From Escherichia coli (GTDB lineage Bacteria > Pseudomonadota > Gammaproteobacteria > Enterobacterales > Enterobacteriaceae), in the NCBI GenBank assembly GCA_029912145.1, contig GCA_029912145.1_4350.1: 44,747 nucleotides of DNA, one strand, 5' to 3'. Positions 15,753 through 44,747 of this stretch are shown piece after piece (position 1 is the first letter of the stretch; each line of letters opens with the position of its first letter). The notes beneath the pieces are model-generated. The model had not been told where the DNA came from and made no database searches. It saw nothing but the letters and a program-made list of their open reading frames with translations. The translations under genes and the position numbers were made by a program.

Positions 15753-15781
15753 TTGCACACCCCAACATAATAGGGTACTAT
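15753..15781 (+). promoter_or_regulatory. Early-type promoter: -35 TTGCAC, 17 bp spacer, -10 TACTAT(TCA), with dyad AATAG-GGTA-CTATT
   Basis: Read directly, about 30 bp upstream of the first rightward gene. Confidence 0.6.
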
Positions 15782-16717: not shown

Positions 16718-16750
16718 TGTTCAATAGTTTGGGATTTTACTGAGTGACTT

Positions 16751-16790
16751 ACGCTGCTGTGTAGCAGCGTATCATTTTTCTCATTTTTGT
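16751..16790 (+). terminator. Rho-independent terminator (ACGCTGCT-GTGT-AGCAGCGT followed by a T-rich tract)
   Basis: Perfect 8 bp stem with T tracts downstream. Confidence 0.6.
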
Positions 16791-16864: not shown

Positions 16865-16893
16865 TTGCACACTAAGATAGAATAGGCTACTAT
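16865..16893 (+). promoter_or_regulatory. Early-type promoter: -35 TTGCAC, 17 bp spacer, -10 TACTAT(TCA), dyad AATAG-GCTA-CTATT
   Basis: Same architecture as the 15753 site; follows the terminator. Confidence 0.6.
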
Positions 16894-17892: not shown

Positions 17893-18096
17893 ATGGTACA
17901 GAGATATTCTAAGTATGGGTCCGACAACCATTTCATTGACCGCCACGGGAAGTGGGTTAAGTTTGAGGACTACCAGAATCTTGACCTAAAGCTGTTGGAA
18001 GTTGAAGCCGAGTTACAGAAATACAAGGACCAGTTCCCGGATTACGTCGAGTGCGCGAACTGTGGGTCAGTTACACATGTGGGAGGGGTGGAGTGA
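17893..18096 (+). CDS. Small protein, paralog A (67 aa)
   Basis: ATG at 17893 with RBS AGGAGA; similar in sequence to the next gene. Confidence 0.5.
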   Translation: MVQRYSKYGSDNHFIDRHGKWVKFEDYQNLDLKLLEVEAELQKYKDQFPDYVECANCGSVTHVGGVE

Positions 18097-18275
18097 TGGT
18101 GCATAGATACGAAAACGACCACGGCGATATGTTTCAGGCCGCGGGAGGGCGCTGGGTCCTATACGAAGACTACGCGGAGCTGGCGCGTAAACTGCGCGAG
18201 CTTGCTAAGCAGGTAGTAAACAGTCCGTGCGACTGGAAGACGGATGAATTAGCGCGCGAGATTCTGGACCTATGA
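18096..18275 (+). CDS. Small protein, paralog B (59 aa)
   Basis: ATG overlaps the upstream stop (TGATG); shares the pattern G.WV..EDY..L..KL.E with paralog A. Confidence 0.5.
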   Translation: MVHRYENDHGDMFQAAGGRWVLYEDYAELARKLRELAKQVVNSPCDWKTDELAREILDL

Positions 18276-18565
18276 GCCTTGCAACTGACATCCTGAAACG
18301 GAGCGGCCTTGCGCCGCTGTCGCCGAGAGCGAACACACGAATATACAAGCGTCGCCGTAACGTGCTGTACCCAGAGATTCAGGACAGACGTAAAGCTATC
18401 CGCGCCTGTGGATTCCAGAACGGGAAGGCTGTGAATCTCGGTGAGTTTAAAACGCAGGAACGTGCGGCTATCGCTAATCGGTTATTTAATTACTGGAAAT
18501 CGCTGGGTTATGAAGATATTCCGACGAAACCACAGAGACGACAATACATCTGGCGTCATAAATAA
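18272..18565 (+). CDS. Hypothetical protein, possibly AP2-like DNA-binding (97 aa)
   Basis: Weak resemblance to AP2-type domains (GKAVNLGEFKTQERAAIA); low certainty. Confidence 0.4.
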   Translation: MSLATDILKRSGLAPLSPRANTRIYKRRRNVLYPEIQDRRKAIRACGFQNGKAVNLGEFKTQERAAIANRLFNYWKSLGYEDIPTKPQRRQYIWRHK

Positions 18566-18595
18566 ACCGTTATTAAGATAATTTCTAACCGTGCT

Positions 18596-18635
18596 ATCCT
18601 CCAGTTACTGCATACTTAATACGCACCTGGAGGAT
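18596..18635 (+). promoter_or_regulatory. Hairpin (9 bp perfect stem ATCCTCCAG / CTGGAGGAT) that sequesters the GGAGGA ribosome-binding site of the holin gene
   Basis: Perfect complementarity read directly; the RBS lies in the 3-prime arm, 6 nt before the TTG start at 18641. Confidence 0.4.
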
Positions 18636-18640
18636 TCATC

Positions 18641-18949
18641 TTGGATAAATTTACTGAAACAGTGACAGGCTGGCTTCTCGCTGCCGCGCTAGCCGGAGGG
18701 GTAATCGGACTACGACAACATAAGTCTGTTATTTCTGGCCCCATCGACGGATTCTGCTTTATCGCAACCGGCTTCACTTGCGCTGTATTCGGCGCGCCTC
18801 TTGCCGCTCAATGGTTCGGTATTACCGGAGAGCGCGAGATAGCTGGCCTCGGATTCATCATCGCAATTCTCTGGATGCCCATCTATTCCCGTCTCTCCGG
18901 TATCGTCTCTGGAGAATACATCGCTCGTCGAGGAGGCACAGATGAATGA
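18641..18949 (+). CDS. Holin candidate (three predicted transmembrane segments, 102 aa, TTG start)
   Basis: Hydrophobic segments; immediately upstream of the second membrane protein and endolysin. Confidence 0.6.
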   Translation: MDKFTETVTGWLLAAALAGGVIGLRQHKSVISGPIDGFCFIATGFTCAVFGAPLAAQWFGITGEREIAGLGFIIAILWMPIYSRLSGIVSGEYIARRGGTDE

Positions 18950-19214
18950 GTTATTCTGGTTCGGTGGTATGCTGGTAATCGGGGGCACATCGCTGTTTAA
19001 TGTGTATCATCCCAGCGTGGACGACGGATTATTTGGCCGGGTGCTCTATATCCTGACTGCCATCGTCTGTGCTGCCGGATGTATCCACCTGTTACAGGGC
19101 AGCATGTCACCAACGCTGCCTGAGACGTTAATCACATTAGTTGCGCTGCGTCAGATTCGCCAGGTGTGGCTGTCATACGGAGGACATAAGCGTGTCTCGA
19201 AATATTTCAGATAA
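18942..19214 (+). CDS. Second small membrane protein of the lysis cassette (holin/antiholin-like, 90 aa)
   Basis: Two hydrophobic segments; overlaps both neighbours. Confidence 0.5.
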   Translation: MNELFWFGGMLVIGGTSLFNVYHPSVDDGLFGRVLYILTAIVCAAGCIHLLQGSMSPTLPETLITLVALRQIRQVWLSYGGHKRVSKYFR

Positions 19215-19680
19215 TGGATTGCATTTTACCGCCGCGTTCGAGGGATTCCGAGGAACTGCGTATCGCGCTACACCGAATGAGAAGTACCTGACTATTGGGT
19301 ATGGAAGCTATGGCCCGCATGTTAAGGCGGGGCAGACCATCACTCCAGGACAAGGCCTCCTGTTACTTAATCGCGATATGGCTAAAGCCGTAGCTGCGGT
19401 TGATGCGGCAGCGCACCATTCACTGACACAGGCACAGTTCGACGCTGTGTGTGACCTGGTCTACAACGCAGGCGCTGGCGTGATTGCCGCTACCACGGGC
19501 ACAGGTAAGGCGCTGCGTTCTGGTGACATCGAGACGCTGCGGGCTAAGCTGACACTGTTCATCAACCAGAACGGCAGACCACTACTCGGCCTGCGTCGCC
19601 GTACAGCAGGTCGTCTGGCGCTGTTTGACGGTAAACCGTGGCAAGAGGCGGAGGCAATTGGGCGCGCGGTGAAAGGTTGA
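19192..19680 (+). CDS. Endolysin, lysozyme-like (glycoside hydrolase family 24-like)
   Basis: GTG start at 19192 preceded by RBS GGAGGA; catalytic-region pattern FEGFRG...TIGYG typical of phage lysozymes. Confidence 0.85.
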   Translation: MSRNISDNGLHFTAAFEGFRGTAYRATPNEKYLTIGYGSYGPHVKAGQTITPGQGLLLLNRDMAKAVAAVDAAAHHSLTQAQFDAVCDLVYNAGAGVIAATTGTGKALRSGDIETLRAKLTLFINQNGRPLLGLRRRTAGRLALFDGKPWQEAEAIGRAVKG

Positions 19681-19745
19681 CACCTAAGACTAATCCGACG
19701 ATACTTAAATCACCTCCTGTTCCATCCCTCTGCTCTCCAGTTTTA

Positions 19746-26469: not shown

Positions 26470-26928
26470 ATGGGCTTTTTCAAAGTAACTGATGTACCGT
26501 CGCGCCGTGTAGTCCAGTACGCCCGAGTGTCTGGCTCTGGCGAGAACGTGGTGTTTATTAGGGATGAAAGTGTACTCGGTACACCAGTAGACGATATGCC
26601 GTTTGCGGATAAGACTGGCATCGCACTTCCTGCGGCGGGCATGCTTTACGAGATTCCGTATCTGGCTGATGCTGGCGACGTGTATTTCTCTGCACAACCA
26701 CAGGACGCTGAACTGGCAGACGGCAGCGCAACTATCACTGTAGAGGTTAAAGCCGGTAAAGCACCATATGCTCTGACCTGGTACAAAGACGGCAAGGAAG
26801 TGGTAAATGCGCCCGAAGAGGCTTTGTCTCTGACGGTTAACGCAGTTGGTGAATACTTCGTTAAGGTTACTGATGCCGATAGGGTAGAGGCTGTGAGTAA
26901 AGCGGCGAAGGTCACTAAGCCCGAATGA
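26470..26928 (+). CDS. Head-associated protein with C-terminal Ig-like domain (152 aa)
   Basis: C-terminal PYALTWYKDGKEV...GEYFVKVTD resembles Ig-like domains; shares this with the 30320-30661 gene. Confidence 0.5.
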   Translation: MGFFKVTDVPSRRVVQYARVSGSGENVVFIRDESVLGTPVDDMPFADKTGIALPAAGMLYEIPYLADAGDVYFSAQPQDAELADGSATITVEVKAGKAPYALTWYKDGKEVVNAPEEALSLTVNAVGEYFVKVTDADRVEAVSKAAKVTKPE

Positions 26929-26932
26929 TAGA

Positions 26933-26961
26933 AGGCCCCTTTAAGGGGCCTTAGTTTATTT
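26933..26961. terminator. Terminator hairpin between convergent genes (AGGCCCC-TTTA-AGGGGCCT followed by a T-rich tract)
   Basis: Read directly. Confidence 0.55.
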
Positions 26962-27267: not shown

Positions 27268-27296
27268 ATAGTACCCTATTATATTGGTGTGTGCAA
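27268..27296 (-). promoter_or_regulatory. Early-type promoter on the minus strand: -35 TTGCAC, 17 bp spacer, -10 TACTAT(TCA), dyad AATAG-GGTA-CTATT
   Basis: Near-identical to the 15753 site. Confidence 0.6.
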
Positions 27297-36813: not shown

Positions 36814-36842
36814 ATAGTACGCTATTATATTGGGGAGTGCAA
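36814..36842 (-). promoter_or_regulatory. Early-type promoter on the minus strand driving the cassette: -35 TTGCAC, 17 bp spacer, -10 TACTAT(TCA), dyad AATAG-CGTA-CTATT
   Basis: Near-identical to the 15753, 16865 and 27296 sites. Confidence 0.6.
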
Positions 36843-42418: not shown

Positions 42419-44747
42419 ATGCCGATGGAGTTTGTCGTTAACCGTATCCCGGACGGCGTTCCGGTACGCGTCTATCTTGGCGAGATTGGTGATGATACTG
42501 ATGTTACAGACGACTTCGACGCGCTCAAAGACGAGGACGCCGTGTACCACATTATTGAGGGCGCTGGCGGCGGCATTGGCGACGCCATCGGGAGAGTATT
42601 CAGTTTCATCCTTAAGCCAATCGCCAAATTGTTCAGGCTAAACACAGCGGCTAACGCTAATTATTCCGCTACCAACAATCAGGCTACGTCGCCTGGCAAC
42701 AGTCTCACCGACCGCTCAAACAAGCCACGACCTTATGAGCGTTCTTATGATATCTGCGGGACAGTGCAGATCATCCCCAATGACCTGATGCAAACATATA
42801 AGGTGTTTAATGCCTCTGGGGTACTTATTGAATATGCGTACTATGACGCCGGTCGAGGGTATCTGCATATTGAGGAAGACGGTGTAACTGAGGCAGATAC
42901 CCGAATCAGCGAGATAACTGGCTCGTCGGTGGCGGTGTATTACCCTTACACTTCGCCGAATAACACCAACGCCCCACAATTGCATATTGGCGACCCGATA
43001 GACCAGAAATTGTACGTTACATTTAAAAACGCCGATGTCGATGGCGCTGTTCTTCCCGCCCCTAATGATATCGCTATAGACGTGCAGGACTACACTGTCC
43101 AGCGGCAGGGAACAACCGGCGTTGTAATAGGCGATGACGCTGGTTTCGATGAGTTTTTGGCTGTCGGAGACCTGGCATATTTCGATAACGTATATGCGGA
43201 CACAACTCCTGGGTTTTTAGGTAATGAGGTTAACTTAAACGGGAGGTACACTGTTCTTTCGGTTAGTGAAACCACCCTTATTGTGGACGTCAGTACAAAT
43301 CAATCAGTATGGAACCGGCTAGGGGCGTCTGTGTGGTTTATAGGTGAAGAGGGTAACCATCTTATAGGCCCGGCGGACACTTACGCGGCTTCTCTCTCTG
43401 AATGGACGTACATCACCCGCGGTATTGTCGACCGTGTTGTAGCCAATGTCGCCGCCAGCAACGGCATGTATAAATACAACGGCGGCTATAACCGCGCTTC
43501 AGTGACAGTGGAACTGCAATACCAGATGGTTGATGAGCTGAAGCAGCCTGTAGGTGATATATTCACCGTGCAAGGCACTGTTACAGGGAGAAACACCGAT
43601 TACACTGGTATTACCCTATACGGAAGCTTGCCTACCGCTTCCAGATTCCGCGCCCGTATGCGCCGTGTTTCCGATACTGATAAAAATTTTAAGGGTACTG
43701 TTAGCGACGAGGTTACTTTCACTAATCTGTACGGGCAGTCACTGGATACAACCCCGCACTACGGCAACCGCACTACTGTACACTGCGCTCGTAAACAAAC
43801 CCCACGTGCCGCCGAGGTGTCAGAACCGGAACTGCGCATGATTGCTACCGAGATGTGCTACAAATACTTAGGTAACGGCGTATTCGATACGGTAATGACA
43901 CCGAACACTCAGGCCGTGCAGTCGCTAATCAGGCTGGCGCGTGACCCTGTGGTGGGTAATCTGGAACTGACAACGGCAAATATGGACAAGTTACTTGCCG
44001 TGCAGGAAGAAATTGAGTCGTATTTTGGCAGTGAATTAGCCGGGCAGTTCTGCTACACGTTCGACGACTACGACACCACGATGCAGGACATCGTTCAGAC
44101 CATCGCGGAAGCCGTTTTCTGTACTGCGTACCGTAAAGGTGCGGATATTATGCTGCGATTTGATCGTCCGGTTGCGGGGCCCGAAATGGTGTTCACCCAC
44201 CGCAGCAAAACTACTGGTACAGAGAAATGGACGCGCACGTTCAACGATTCGACAACCTATGATAGCCTGTCGTTCTCATACATCGACCCGGATACTAACG
44301 TACAGGAAACGATTTATATCCCGGAAGAACTCGGCGCGAACACCGAGGAATATGAATCGAAGGGCGTACGTAACTATCAGCAGGCATATTGGCTGGCGTG
44401 GCGTCGCTACCAGCGCAACGCGTTAAGTAAAGTTGTCGTAGAGTTCGAAGCTACCGAAGAGGGTGCACTCGCTACACCGGGTGGTGTAATCAGCGTGGTT
44501 AAAGGTTCACGTATCGCGCCTCAGGATGGTTATGTTGTTGCCGTTAATGGGCTTACGCTGACACTGTCGCAACCTGTTACGTTTACCCCCGGCGATGACC
44601 ACTCCATCATCCTCAAGAAGCGCGATGGCTCCGTGCAGAGTATTTCTGTTATCAAAGGAAGCCACGACCGCGAGGTGATTATGCTCTCCGCGCCGGAGGA
44701 GGCAATCTACACGGGGAATAGCGCACTAAAAACTGAGTTTTCATTCG
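42419..44747 (+). CDS. Central tail fibre / host-specificity protein (gpI/gpJ-like), 3-prime end truncated by the window
   Basis: Frame 2 is open from about 42350 to the window end (more than 770 codons) and is absent from the ORF track because it has no stop; start may be TTG near 42353 or ATG at 42419. Confidence 0.6.
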   Translation, partial: MPMEFVVNRIPDGVPVRVYLGEIGDDTDVTDDFDALKDEDAVYHIIEGAGGGIGDAIGRVFSFILKPIAKLFRLNTAANANYSATNNQATSPGNSLTDRSNKPRPYERSYDICGTVQIIPNDLMQTYKVFNASGVLIEYAYYDAGRGYLHIEEDGVTEADTRISEITGSSVAVYYPYTSPNNTNAPQLHIGDPIDQKLYVTFKNADVDGAVLPAPNDIAIDVQDYTVQRQGTTGVVIGDDAGFDEFLAVGDLAYFDNVYADTTPGFLGNEVNLNGRYTVLSVSETTLIVDVSTNQSVWNRLGASVWFIGEEGNHLIGPADTYAASLSEWTYITRGIVDRVVANVAASNGMYKYNGGYNRASVTVELQYQMVDELKQPVGDIFTVQGTVTGRNTDYTGITLYGSLPTASRFRARMRRVSDTDKNFKGTVSDEVTFTNLYGQSLDTTPHYGNRTTVHCARKQTPRAAEVSEPELRMIATEMCYKYLGNGVFDTVMTPNTQAVQSLIRLARDPVVGNLELTTANMDKLLAVQEEIESYFGSELAGQFCYTFDDYDTTMQDIVQTIAEAVFCTAYRKGADIMLRFDRPVAGPEMVFTHRSKTTGTEKWTRTFNDSTTYDSLSFSYIDPDTNVQETIYIPEELGANTEEYESKGVRNYQQAYWLAWRRYQRNALSKVVVEFEATEEGALATPGGVISVVKGSRIAPQDGYVVAVNGLTLTLSQPVTFTPGDDHSIILKKRDGSVQSISVIKGSHDREVIMLSAPEEAIYTGNSALKTEFSF

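Follow-up and report, generated by a model that had tools for sequence, protein, structure and literature searches.

A conserved hairpin over the holin ribosome-binding site of Kagunavirus, with a putative promoter element in its 5' arm

The holin gene in the lysis cassette of Kagunavirus is preceded by a perfect 9-bp stem, the 3' arm of which contains the Shine-Dalgarno sequence. Occlusion of the Shine-Dalgarno sequence by this hairpin is probably real and under selection, and the element fits best into an already known kind of control, the leader hairpin that sequesters the Shine-Dalgarno sequence of a lysis gene. Added interest comes from its conservation across several siphophage genera and from its merging with a terminator and a probable promoter. 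A conserved -10-like element extends over part of the 5' arm, so that the hairpin may be limited to read-through transcripts and may be missing from the mRNA that is actually translated.

The lysis cassette and transcription into its leader

The window, by which the whole analysed stretch of 44,747 nucleotides is meant, contains what is, judged by its sequence, the lysis cassette of a Kagunavirus (Guernseyvirinae), a siphophage of E. coli. Over 1.5 kb around the hairpin, phages phiEc4, BEU33 and vB_Eco_K-02 show 99% identity to it, and 131 phage records match this 1.5-kb region. The holin gene (18641..18949, + strand) encodes 102 residues from a TTG start (phrog_2359 holin, E = 1.8e-29), and its product is annotated as holin in relatives. 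It overlaps by 8 nt with the gene of a second holin or antiholin of 90 residues (18942..19214, + strand; phrog_2508 holin, E = 2.5e-34), which is followed by the last gene of the cassette, an endolysin gene with a GTG start (19192..19680, + strand; PF00959 Phage_lysozyme, E = 6.8e-26). Directly 3' of the cassette lies a promoter-like TTGACA-17-GATACT site (19677..19705, + strand), which matches the consensus at 10 of 12 positions and would initiate the next transcription unit. In an annotated relative, the cassette is situated inside a long co-directional run of small genes, which begins at a divergent region and reaches into the genes for the terminase and the head. At the endolysin start (GGAGGA, then GTG at 19192) nucleotide diversity dips to 0.03-0.06 (19186-19215), marking the second strongly conserved start site of the cassette, located within the 3' end of the second holin gene.

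A leader of 75 nt separates the holin gene from a 97-residue open reading frame of unassigned function (18272..18565, + strand; phrog_9632), for which Pfam and PDB searches gave no match. The idea that its product is a DNA-binding regulator was rejected, as the likeness is by eye, finds no counterpart in Pfam or PDB, and the gene is absent from half of the relatives. Among Kagunaviruses two alternative genes are found 5' of the leader, either the one encoding this 97-residue protein or, in many relatives, one for an HslV-like peptidase of the HslV family (the swap was noted in L005-L010, L019-L023 and L033-L034). The exchange occurs at a sharp junction at about 18565-18571, immediately before the conserved leader.

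Four perfect copies of a sigma70-type phage consensus promoter, TTGCAC-N17-TACTAT, are present in the window, two on the + strand (15753-15781 and 16865-16893) and two on the - strand (27268-27296 and 36814-36842). Their spacers are also similar (ACnCCAAnATAATAGnG), and the four copies appear to mark the heads of the main transcription units. Between 16893 and 18590 on the + strand, no terminator-like site was found. With no recognisable terminator behind it, the consensus promoter at 16865..16893 (+ strand) should give long transcripts that reach the leader; it is the likely origin of the RNA reading through the small upstream genes. Rho-dependent termination upstream of the leader may also take place.

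Three further inverted repeats were observed in the window. Perfect 9-bp repeats with the look of ordinary intrinsic terminators are located at 16750-16771 on the + strand (TACGCTGCT/AGCAGCGTA, with a T-rich tail), just before the 16865 promoter, and at 26932-26952 (AAGGCCCCT/AGGGGCCTT), right after an open reading frame ending at 26928. The longest perfect repeat of this kind in the window comprises 10 bp with a 26-nt spacer and is found at 42857-42902 (GGGTATCTGC ... GCAGATACCC).

Geometry, folding and conservation of the leader hairpin

The 3' arm of the hairpin, CTGGAGGAT (18627..18635, + strand), is the exact reverse complement of the 5' or anti-Shine-Dalgarno arm, ATCCTCCAG (18596..18604, + strand), just as an earlier note on this DNA had described it, correct in every coordinate. 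Five of the nine pairs are G-C. As had also been noted, the Shine-Dalgarno sequence GGAGGA (18629-18634) lies within the 3' arm and is followed by a 6-nt spacer, TTCATC, and by the TTG start codon (18641-18643). Between the arms extends a loop of 22 nt (18605..18626, + strand), in which an inner 3-bp helix is predicted (18609-11 with 18623-25). TTG 18641 is the first start codon of the 102-residue reading frame (18641-18949), and its assignment is sound, since an ATG or GTG occupies this position in the alignment of homologous holins, which begin with MDK.., MDDK.. or MDL... The TTG start is conserved across Kagunavirus. The holin itself begins with M-D-K-F-T-E-T-V, and the next in-frame start-like codon is the GTG at codon 8, which has no Shine-Dalgarno sequence.

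Perfect 9-bp inverted repeats with loops of 3-30 nt occur eight times in the window, compared with 5.1 +/- 2.8 times in Markov shuffles. A repeat of this length as such is within chance; its placement and conservation are beyond chance. The 56-nt segment 18590-18645 folds with -16.1 kcal/mol versus -9.2 +/- 2.3 kcal/mol for shuffled sequences (z = -2.99), none of 200 shuffles being as stable, while the 121-nt context of the hairpin yields a z-score of only -1.46. In the extended predicted fold, 5+3+9+3 pairs with internal loops between them build up a helix of about 20 bp, and the start codon is also covered by weaker lower helices. The cost of opening positions -18 to +6 of each start site was ranked in vB_Eco_K-02, which is annotated and 99% identical to the window. 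For the holin start it amounts to 15.0 kcal/mol, compared with a mean of 8.0 kcal/mol (sd 3.0) over the 86 coding sequences of this phage. This places the holin start at rank 4 of 86, behind three doubtful small open reading frames lacking a Shine-Dalgarno sequence, and it is the most occluded of the sites with a credible one.

The stem was compared in 82 Kagunavirus-type leaders collected from IMG/VR, metagenomes and GenBank. All nine pairs are kept in 79 of them, a G-U pair is present in one and a mismatch in two. An A-to-G change in L039 retains a G-U pair, L077 has an A-C mismatch, and in the Jerseyvirus VT223, where the leader precedes a broken holin fragment, the terminal stem pair is lost. 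The first mismatch above the stem has been repaired twice independently and from opposite sides: a T-to-G change on the 5' side in the L025 group (L025, L055 and L056) extends the stem to 11 bp (-21.5 kcal/mol), and C-to-A and C-to-T changes on the 3' side in Salmonella phage LSPA1 extend it to 13 bp (-23.0 kcal/mol). The 22-nt loop hardly varies across Kagunavirus, the LSPA1 lineage with its longer stem having a remodelled loop in which six bases are changed.

The hairpin is part of an ultra-conserved block (18571..18665, + strand), which comprises the -10-like element described below, the hairpin with the Shine-Dalgarno sequence, the start codon and the first 8 codons. Among 58 unique sequences, nucleotide diversity is 0.005-0.016 at 18601-18660, whereas the holin body shows 0.1-0.3 and the upstream gene 0.2-0.46; conservation of the 20-mer 18641-18660 is inflated in this comparison, as it served as the search pattern for about half of the loci. 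The low diversity of the leader persists between phages whose holins are only 79-82% identical, and it also persists across the swap of the upstream gene. Loop, spacer and the first 7 codons are conserved beyond the needs of the hairpin, a near-invariance that every model considered explains loosely at best. Formal covariation within Kagunavirus was uninformative, the leader being nearly invariant. Since no second copy of the leader and no shared motif was found elsewhere in the window, the leader is not a repeated promoter or operator motif of the phage. Seven metagenome matches to the 20-mer, together with scanned genome contigs, were discarded as chance matches in unrelated organisms.

A displaced copy of the leader was observed in Salmonella phage VT223 (L042, PP280813.1), where positions 2000-2265 hold a Kagunavirus leader with the first ~20 holin codons, 93% identical to 18571-18701 of the window. 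The remnant is fused to unrelated sequence, forming an annotated 48-residue reading frame, and is followed by the terminator hairpin and the GTG-start holin of the phage's own module. It is a recombination scar between the lysis modules of two genera. Both the terminal stem pair and the TG of the -10-like motif are mutated in this remnant.

Counterparts in other lineages and the -10-like element

More distant holin lineages were traced by tblastn of phage genomes; a search for protein homologues found none below 68% identity. Directly 5' of the holin start, six further sampled lineages likewise have a hairpin with the Shine-Dalgarno sequence in its 3' arm. The upper stems of these hairpins are unlike in sequence, complementarity being retained. 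In Dhillonvirus HK578 the arms AGTCCCAGTGAG / CTTACTGGGACT are followed by T6 and ATG, in Jerseyvirus AATCTCCGAAGGT / ACTTTCGGAGATT by a T-rich tail and GTG, in KW1E and KLB22 TCCCCG / CGGGGA by T8 and ATG, and in Edwardsiella phage eiAU GGCCCTGTA / TACGGGGCC by TTTTCTT and ATG. The L116-L120 lineage carries CTCCGTATGG / CCTATACGGAG and variants thereof without a U-tract, and the Serratia phages Scapp and Smarc4 carry GGCCCC, a loop of ~20 nt and GGGGCT, followed by TTG. The leader of HK578 is recognisably homologous to that of the window (CGTGnTAT..TCC(C)AGT ... CTGG(G/A)G ... (A/T)TGGATAA). The hairpins of HK578, Jerseyvirus, KW1E and eiAU (-13 to -24 kcal/mol, U5-U8 tract) are scored as terminator-like by the scanner, so that in these phages a canonical intrinsic terminator abuts the start codon.

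One formal compensatory pair was detected, a change from AU to UA (7 versus 4 sequences). Wobble pairs that have become fixed read G-U on the mRNA (sense) strand, which is also the strand of the U-tracts; selection therefore acts on an RNA hairpin and not on a DNA palindrome. No such hairpin was found in Erwinia phage RF1, where the holin follows a divergent promoter region and has no co-directional upstream gene, or in phage ep3, where it is located 4 nt after an activator gene. Both are examples of phages in which no co-directional gap precedes the holin; such phages lack the hairpin.

Two side observations concern these lineages. In the more distant phages ep3 (L183) and Pseudomonas phage PPpW-3 (H226, H231), the homologous holin is situated directly after a gene annotated as 'late transcriptional activator', an arrangement which is a different solution to the timing of holin expression. 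The holin of Edwardsiella phage eiAU-183 (L182, KF772234.1, ~636-725) probably begins further upstream than locus 722, where its start has been annotated: translation from an in-frame ATG that immediately follows the terminator hairpin would give a product beginning MDLWQK..., which aligns with the MDK../MDDK.. starts of its homologues.

Overlapping the first five bases of the 5' arm, an extended -10-like element, TGCTATCCT (TG-n-TATCCT; 18592..18600, + strand), is predicted to start transcription at ~18607. The sequence TG[C/G]TATCCT is present in 81 of the 82 Kagunavirus-type leaders, n being the sole variable position. Most lineages have an element of this kind that adjoins the 5' arm or overlaps it, as seen in HK578 (TGATATAGT), Jerseyvirus (TG[T/C]TAATCT), L116 and L118 (TGATAATCT and TGCTAACCT, respectively) and eiAU (TGTTACCAT). 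KW1E possesses a full, tool-detected promoter, TTGACC-17-TACTAT, which ends one base before the stem, and in the Serratia phages TAATCT abuts the stem. The pattern TGnTAnnnT keeps the same register to the 5' arm in five lineages, the flanking bases being different. Transcription beginning 7 bases downstream of the hexamers would, in all lineages examined, start either within the loop or at the top of the 5' arm. Opening the holin start site costs 13-20 kcal/mol in the full leaders. When the RNA is truncated at the predicted transcription start, the cost is 3-8 kcal/mol in eight of nine lineages with a valid computation, a set that omits eiAU owing to a wrong start coordinate; the exception is L174 with 10.9 kcal/mol. 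For the leader of the window the cost drops from 15.0 to 5.1 kcal/mol, and the fold of 18607-18700 leaves the core of the Shine-Dalgarno sequence free of pairing. In the four terminator lineages, the terminator touching the start codon leaves no room for another promoter, so that the holin mRNA either starts inside the hairpin or results from read-through.

The motif TGNTANNNT is found 78 times in the window versus 79 times expected, which is chance level; its recurrent position is the only evidence for it, and the lineages share ancestry and are not independent. The hexamer TATCCT agrees with the consensus in four of its six bases and lacks a usable -35 element, and a promoter scanner run on the window did not flag the TGCTATCCT site. 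As an alternative reason for its conservation, the GTG could pair with CAU at 18637-18639 in a lower helix. Two other promoter candidates were rejected. GATAAT at 18577-18582 reads GATAAA in some relatives, a T-to-A change at the critical last position of a -10 hexamer, and in the relatives that carry the HslV gene these bases belong to its stop-codon region. A promoter in the loop, GTGCTA-16-TACTTA, matches the consensus poorly. A literature search on these phage genera found no study on transcription or on the holin leader.

Taken together, the hairpin may serve as a conserved regulatory junction between the upstream operon and the lysis cassette. Transcripts from 16865-16893 would, as read from the sequence, traverse the small upstream genes and reach the holin leader. 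In this read-through RNA, 18596-18604 would pair with 18627-18635 and bury GGAGGA, as is predicted by folding and supported by comparison, and the holin would hardly be translated, which would prevent premature lysis. The putative extended -10 promoter TGCTATCCT (18592-18600) would start transcription near 18607 and give rise to an mRNA without the anti-Shine-Dalgarno arm, which would carry a 34-nt unstructured leader and be translated from the weak TTG. Slow build-up of holin from this short mRNA would then set the lysis time. In the sister genera the hairpin with its U-tract would also terminate the upstream operon; in Kagunavirus the U-tract may have been lost or never been present, the translational block alone being kept. 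This full model, in which the hairpin silences read-through RNA and an internal promoter takes over in a way resembling T4 gene e, has an even chance of being correct. A somewhat lower, though still appreciable, chance is given to the wider proposal that Kagunavirus, Jerseyvirus, Dhillonvirus, KW1E-like phages, Eiauvirus and Scappvirus share a three-in-one hairpin switch before the holin, which ends or silences the upstream operon, hides the Shine-Dalgarno sequence and has, within its 5' arm, the -10 element for the promoter making the only translatable holin mRNA. Such a switch would be the host-sigma70 counterpart of T4 gene e, and Kagunavirus would represent a variant in which termination has been given up and translational silencing alone remains.

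The earlier note had proposed that holin translation may be structurally gated. Occlusion of the Shine-Dalgarno sequence and its selection are upheld by the thermodynamics, by the stem kept in ~80 relatives and lengthened in L025 and LSPA1, and by the hairpins of other genera; as an account of the element the reading is probably incomplete, given the terminators of the sister genera and the -10-like element over the 5' arm. If no internal promoter existed, the hairpin would be carried by all holin mRNA and would act as a constitutive throttle, breathing of the stem together with the TTG codon giving a low, fixed rate of synthesis that sets the lysis time. Tuned start sites typically combine a strong Shine-Dalgarno sequence and optimal spacing with a weak start codon, as is the case here, and the -10-like motif is weak and escaped the promoter scanner. 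A precedent is provided by RNA phages: according to PMC2978339, the translational yield of the coat gene of MS2 and Qbeta is tuned by the stability of a hairpin at the Shine-Dalgarno sequence. These hairpins differ from that of the window in acting within a single genomic RNA without an alternative transcript start. However, a constitutive throttle leaves both the common register of TGnTA..T across lineages and the full promoter of KW1E unexplained, and where the hairpin is a strong terminator, as in HK578, Jerseyvirus, KW1E and eiAU, read-through mRNA would be rare and almost untranslatable. We consider this explanation unlikely, though worth keeping in view.

It is improbable that the element acts mainly as a transcription terminator or attenuator of the upstream operon, the overlap with the Shine-Dalgarno sequence being a by-product of genome compaction. 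The terminators of Dhillonvirus, Jerseyvirus, KW1E/KLB22 and Eiauvirus occupy the same position 5' of the homologous holin start and hold the Shine-Dalgarno sequence in the 3' arm, and behind the window stem the first two bases are U, as are 5 of the next 8. The window hairpin, however, differs from these terminators in lacking a U-tract, and it was rejected as a Rho-independent terminator since its loop is 22 nt long (versus 3-8 nt), its tail is UUCAUCUU and the terminator scan found no match there. Moreover, the hairpin on the Shine-Dalgarno sequence is retained without a U-tract in the L116-L120 and Serratia lineages, and the Serratia phages keep it even though they have a separate terminator upstream.

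Even less credence is given to a site of binding or processing, at which a phage or host factor (a repressor or activator) would read the invariant loop or RNase III would cleave the helix of about 20 bp. The extended fold would offer such a substrate, and the near-invariance of loop and flanks goes beyond what pairing needs; yet other lineages have short loops of unrelated sequence, the LSPA1 lineage tolerates its six loop changes, no candidate factor was identified and no Rfam family matched. Lastly, it is very improbable that the element has no function as RNA, being an incidental complementarity or a protein-binding inverted repeat at the DNA level whose conservation stems from a recent spread of the leader through recombination at the border of two modules. 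Chance alone would produce 9-bp inverted repeats in the window, and the leader does lie at a recombination junction (alternative upstream genes, the VT223 hybrid), but six further sampled lineages have hairpins of unlike sequence at this very position, the sense-strand U-tracts of four lineages and the fixed G-U pairs argue for a role of the RNA, and in the VT223 remnant, where the downstream reading frame is broken, both stem and TG have decayed.

Relation to known systems and possible significance for lysis timing

The closest likeness is found in phage T4. In genes e, soc, 49 and I-TevI, the Shine-Dalgarno sequence or start codon is sequestered in a hairpin on long transcripts from upstream promoters; in the type represented by gene e, a promoter lies in the DNA encoding the 5' strand of the hairpin, and the later transcripts, which lack the inhibitory arm, are translated (PMC3014915). 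As in T4 gene e, the controlled gene of the window is a lysis gene, and a hairpin burying the Shine-Dalgarno sequence in a stable helix on long transcripts is predicted. The two systems differ in several respects. The late promoters of T4 (TATAAATA) depend on gp55 and have mapped 5' ends, whereas the candidate of the window is a host-type extended -10 element proposed from the sequence. The window gene encodes a holin and T4 e an endolysin, and the counterparts of the window hairpin in sister genera are also intrinsic terminators.

In phage lambda, the stem-loop sdi (site-directed initiation) at the 5' end of the holin gene S controls ribosome access (PMC3359269). In contrast to the hairpin of the window, sdi partitions initiation between Met1 and Met3 and thereby sets the ratio of antiholin to holin. 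Dual-start holins of this kind have two in-frame starts one or two codons apart and yield an antiholin that bears an additional positive charge at its N-terminus. A start choice of this type was rejected for the window, where the hairpin covers a single Shine-Dalgarno sequence and no second start is found one or two codons off, the GTG at codon 8 being the nearest candidate. Furthermore, the holin of the window is followed by a separate second holin-like gene. An RNA thermometer of the ROSE or fourU type, in which a weak helix rich in mismatches or U melts at 37-42 C, was likewise rejected, as the stem consists of nine perfect pairs, contains no UUUU:AGGA pairing and is predicted to be stable at 37 C. 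A search of 18000-19400 against Rfam 15 returned only STnc500 on the opposite strand, with 13.9 bits and E = 0.38 (gathering score 44), which is chance level.

The level of holin sets the lysis time and hence the burst size, and Kagunaviruses are widely isolated as therapeutic phages of E. coli. If the model of a silenced read-through RNA and an internal promoter is true, it would explain how a lysis cassette in the middle of a long co-directional operon avoids early killing of the host, and either the stem or the -10 element would offer a simple handle for engineering lysis time. It would also imply that the strategy of T4 gene e evolved or persisted in unrelated phages that depend on the host polymerase, with a hairpin that, in sister genera, doubles as a terminator.
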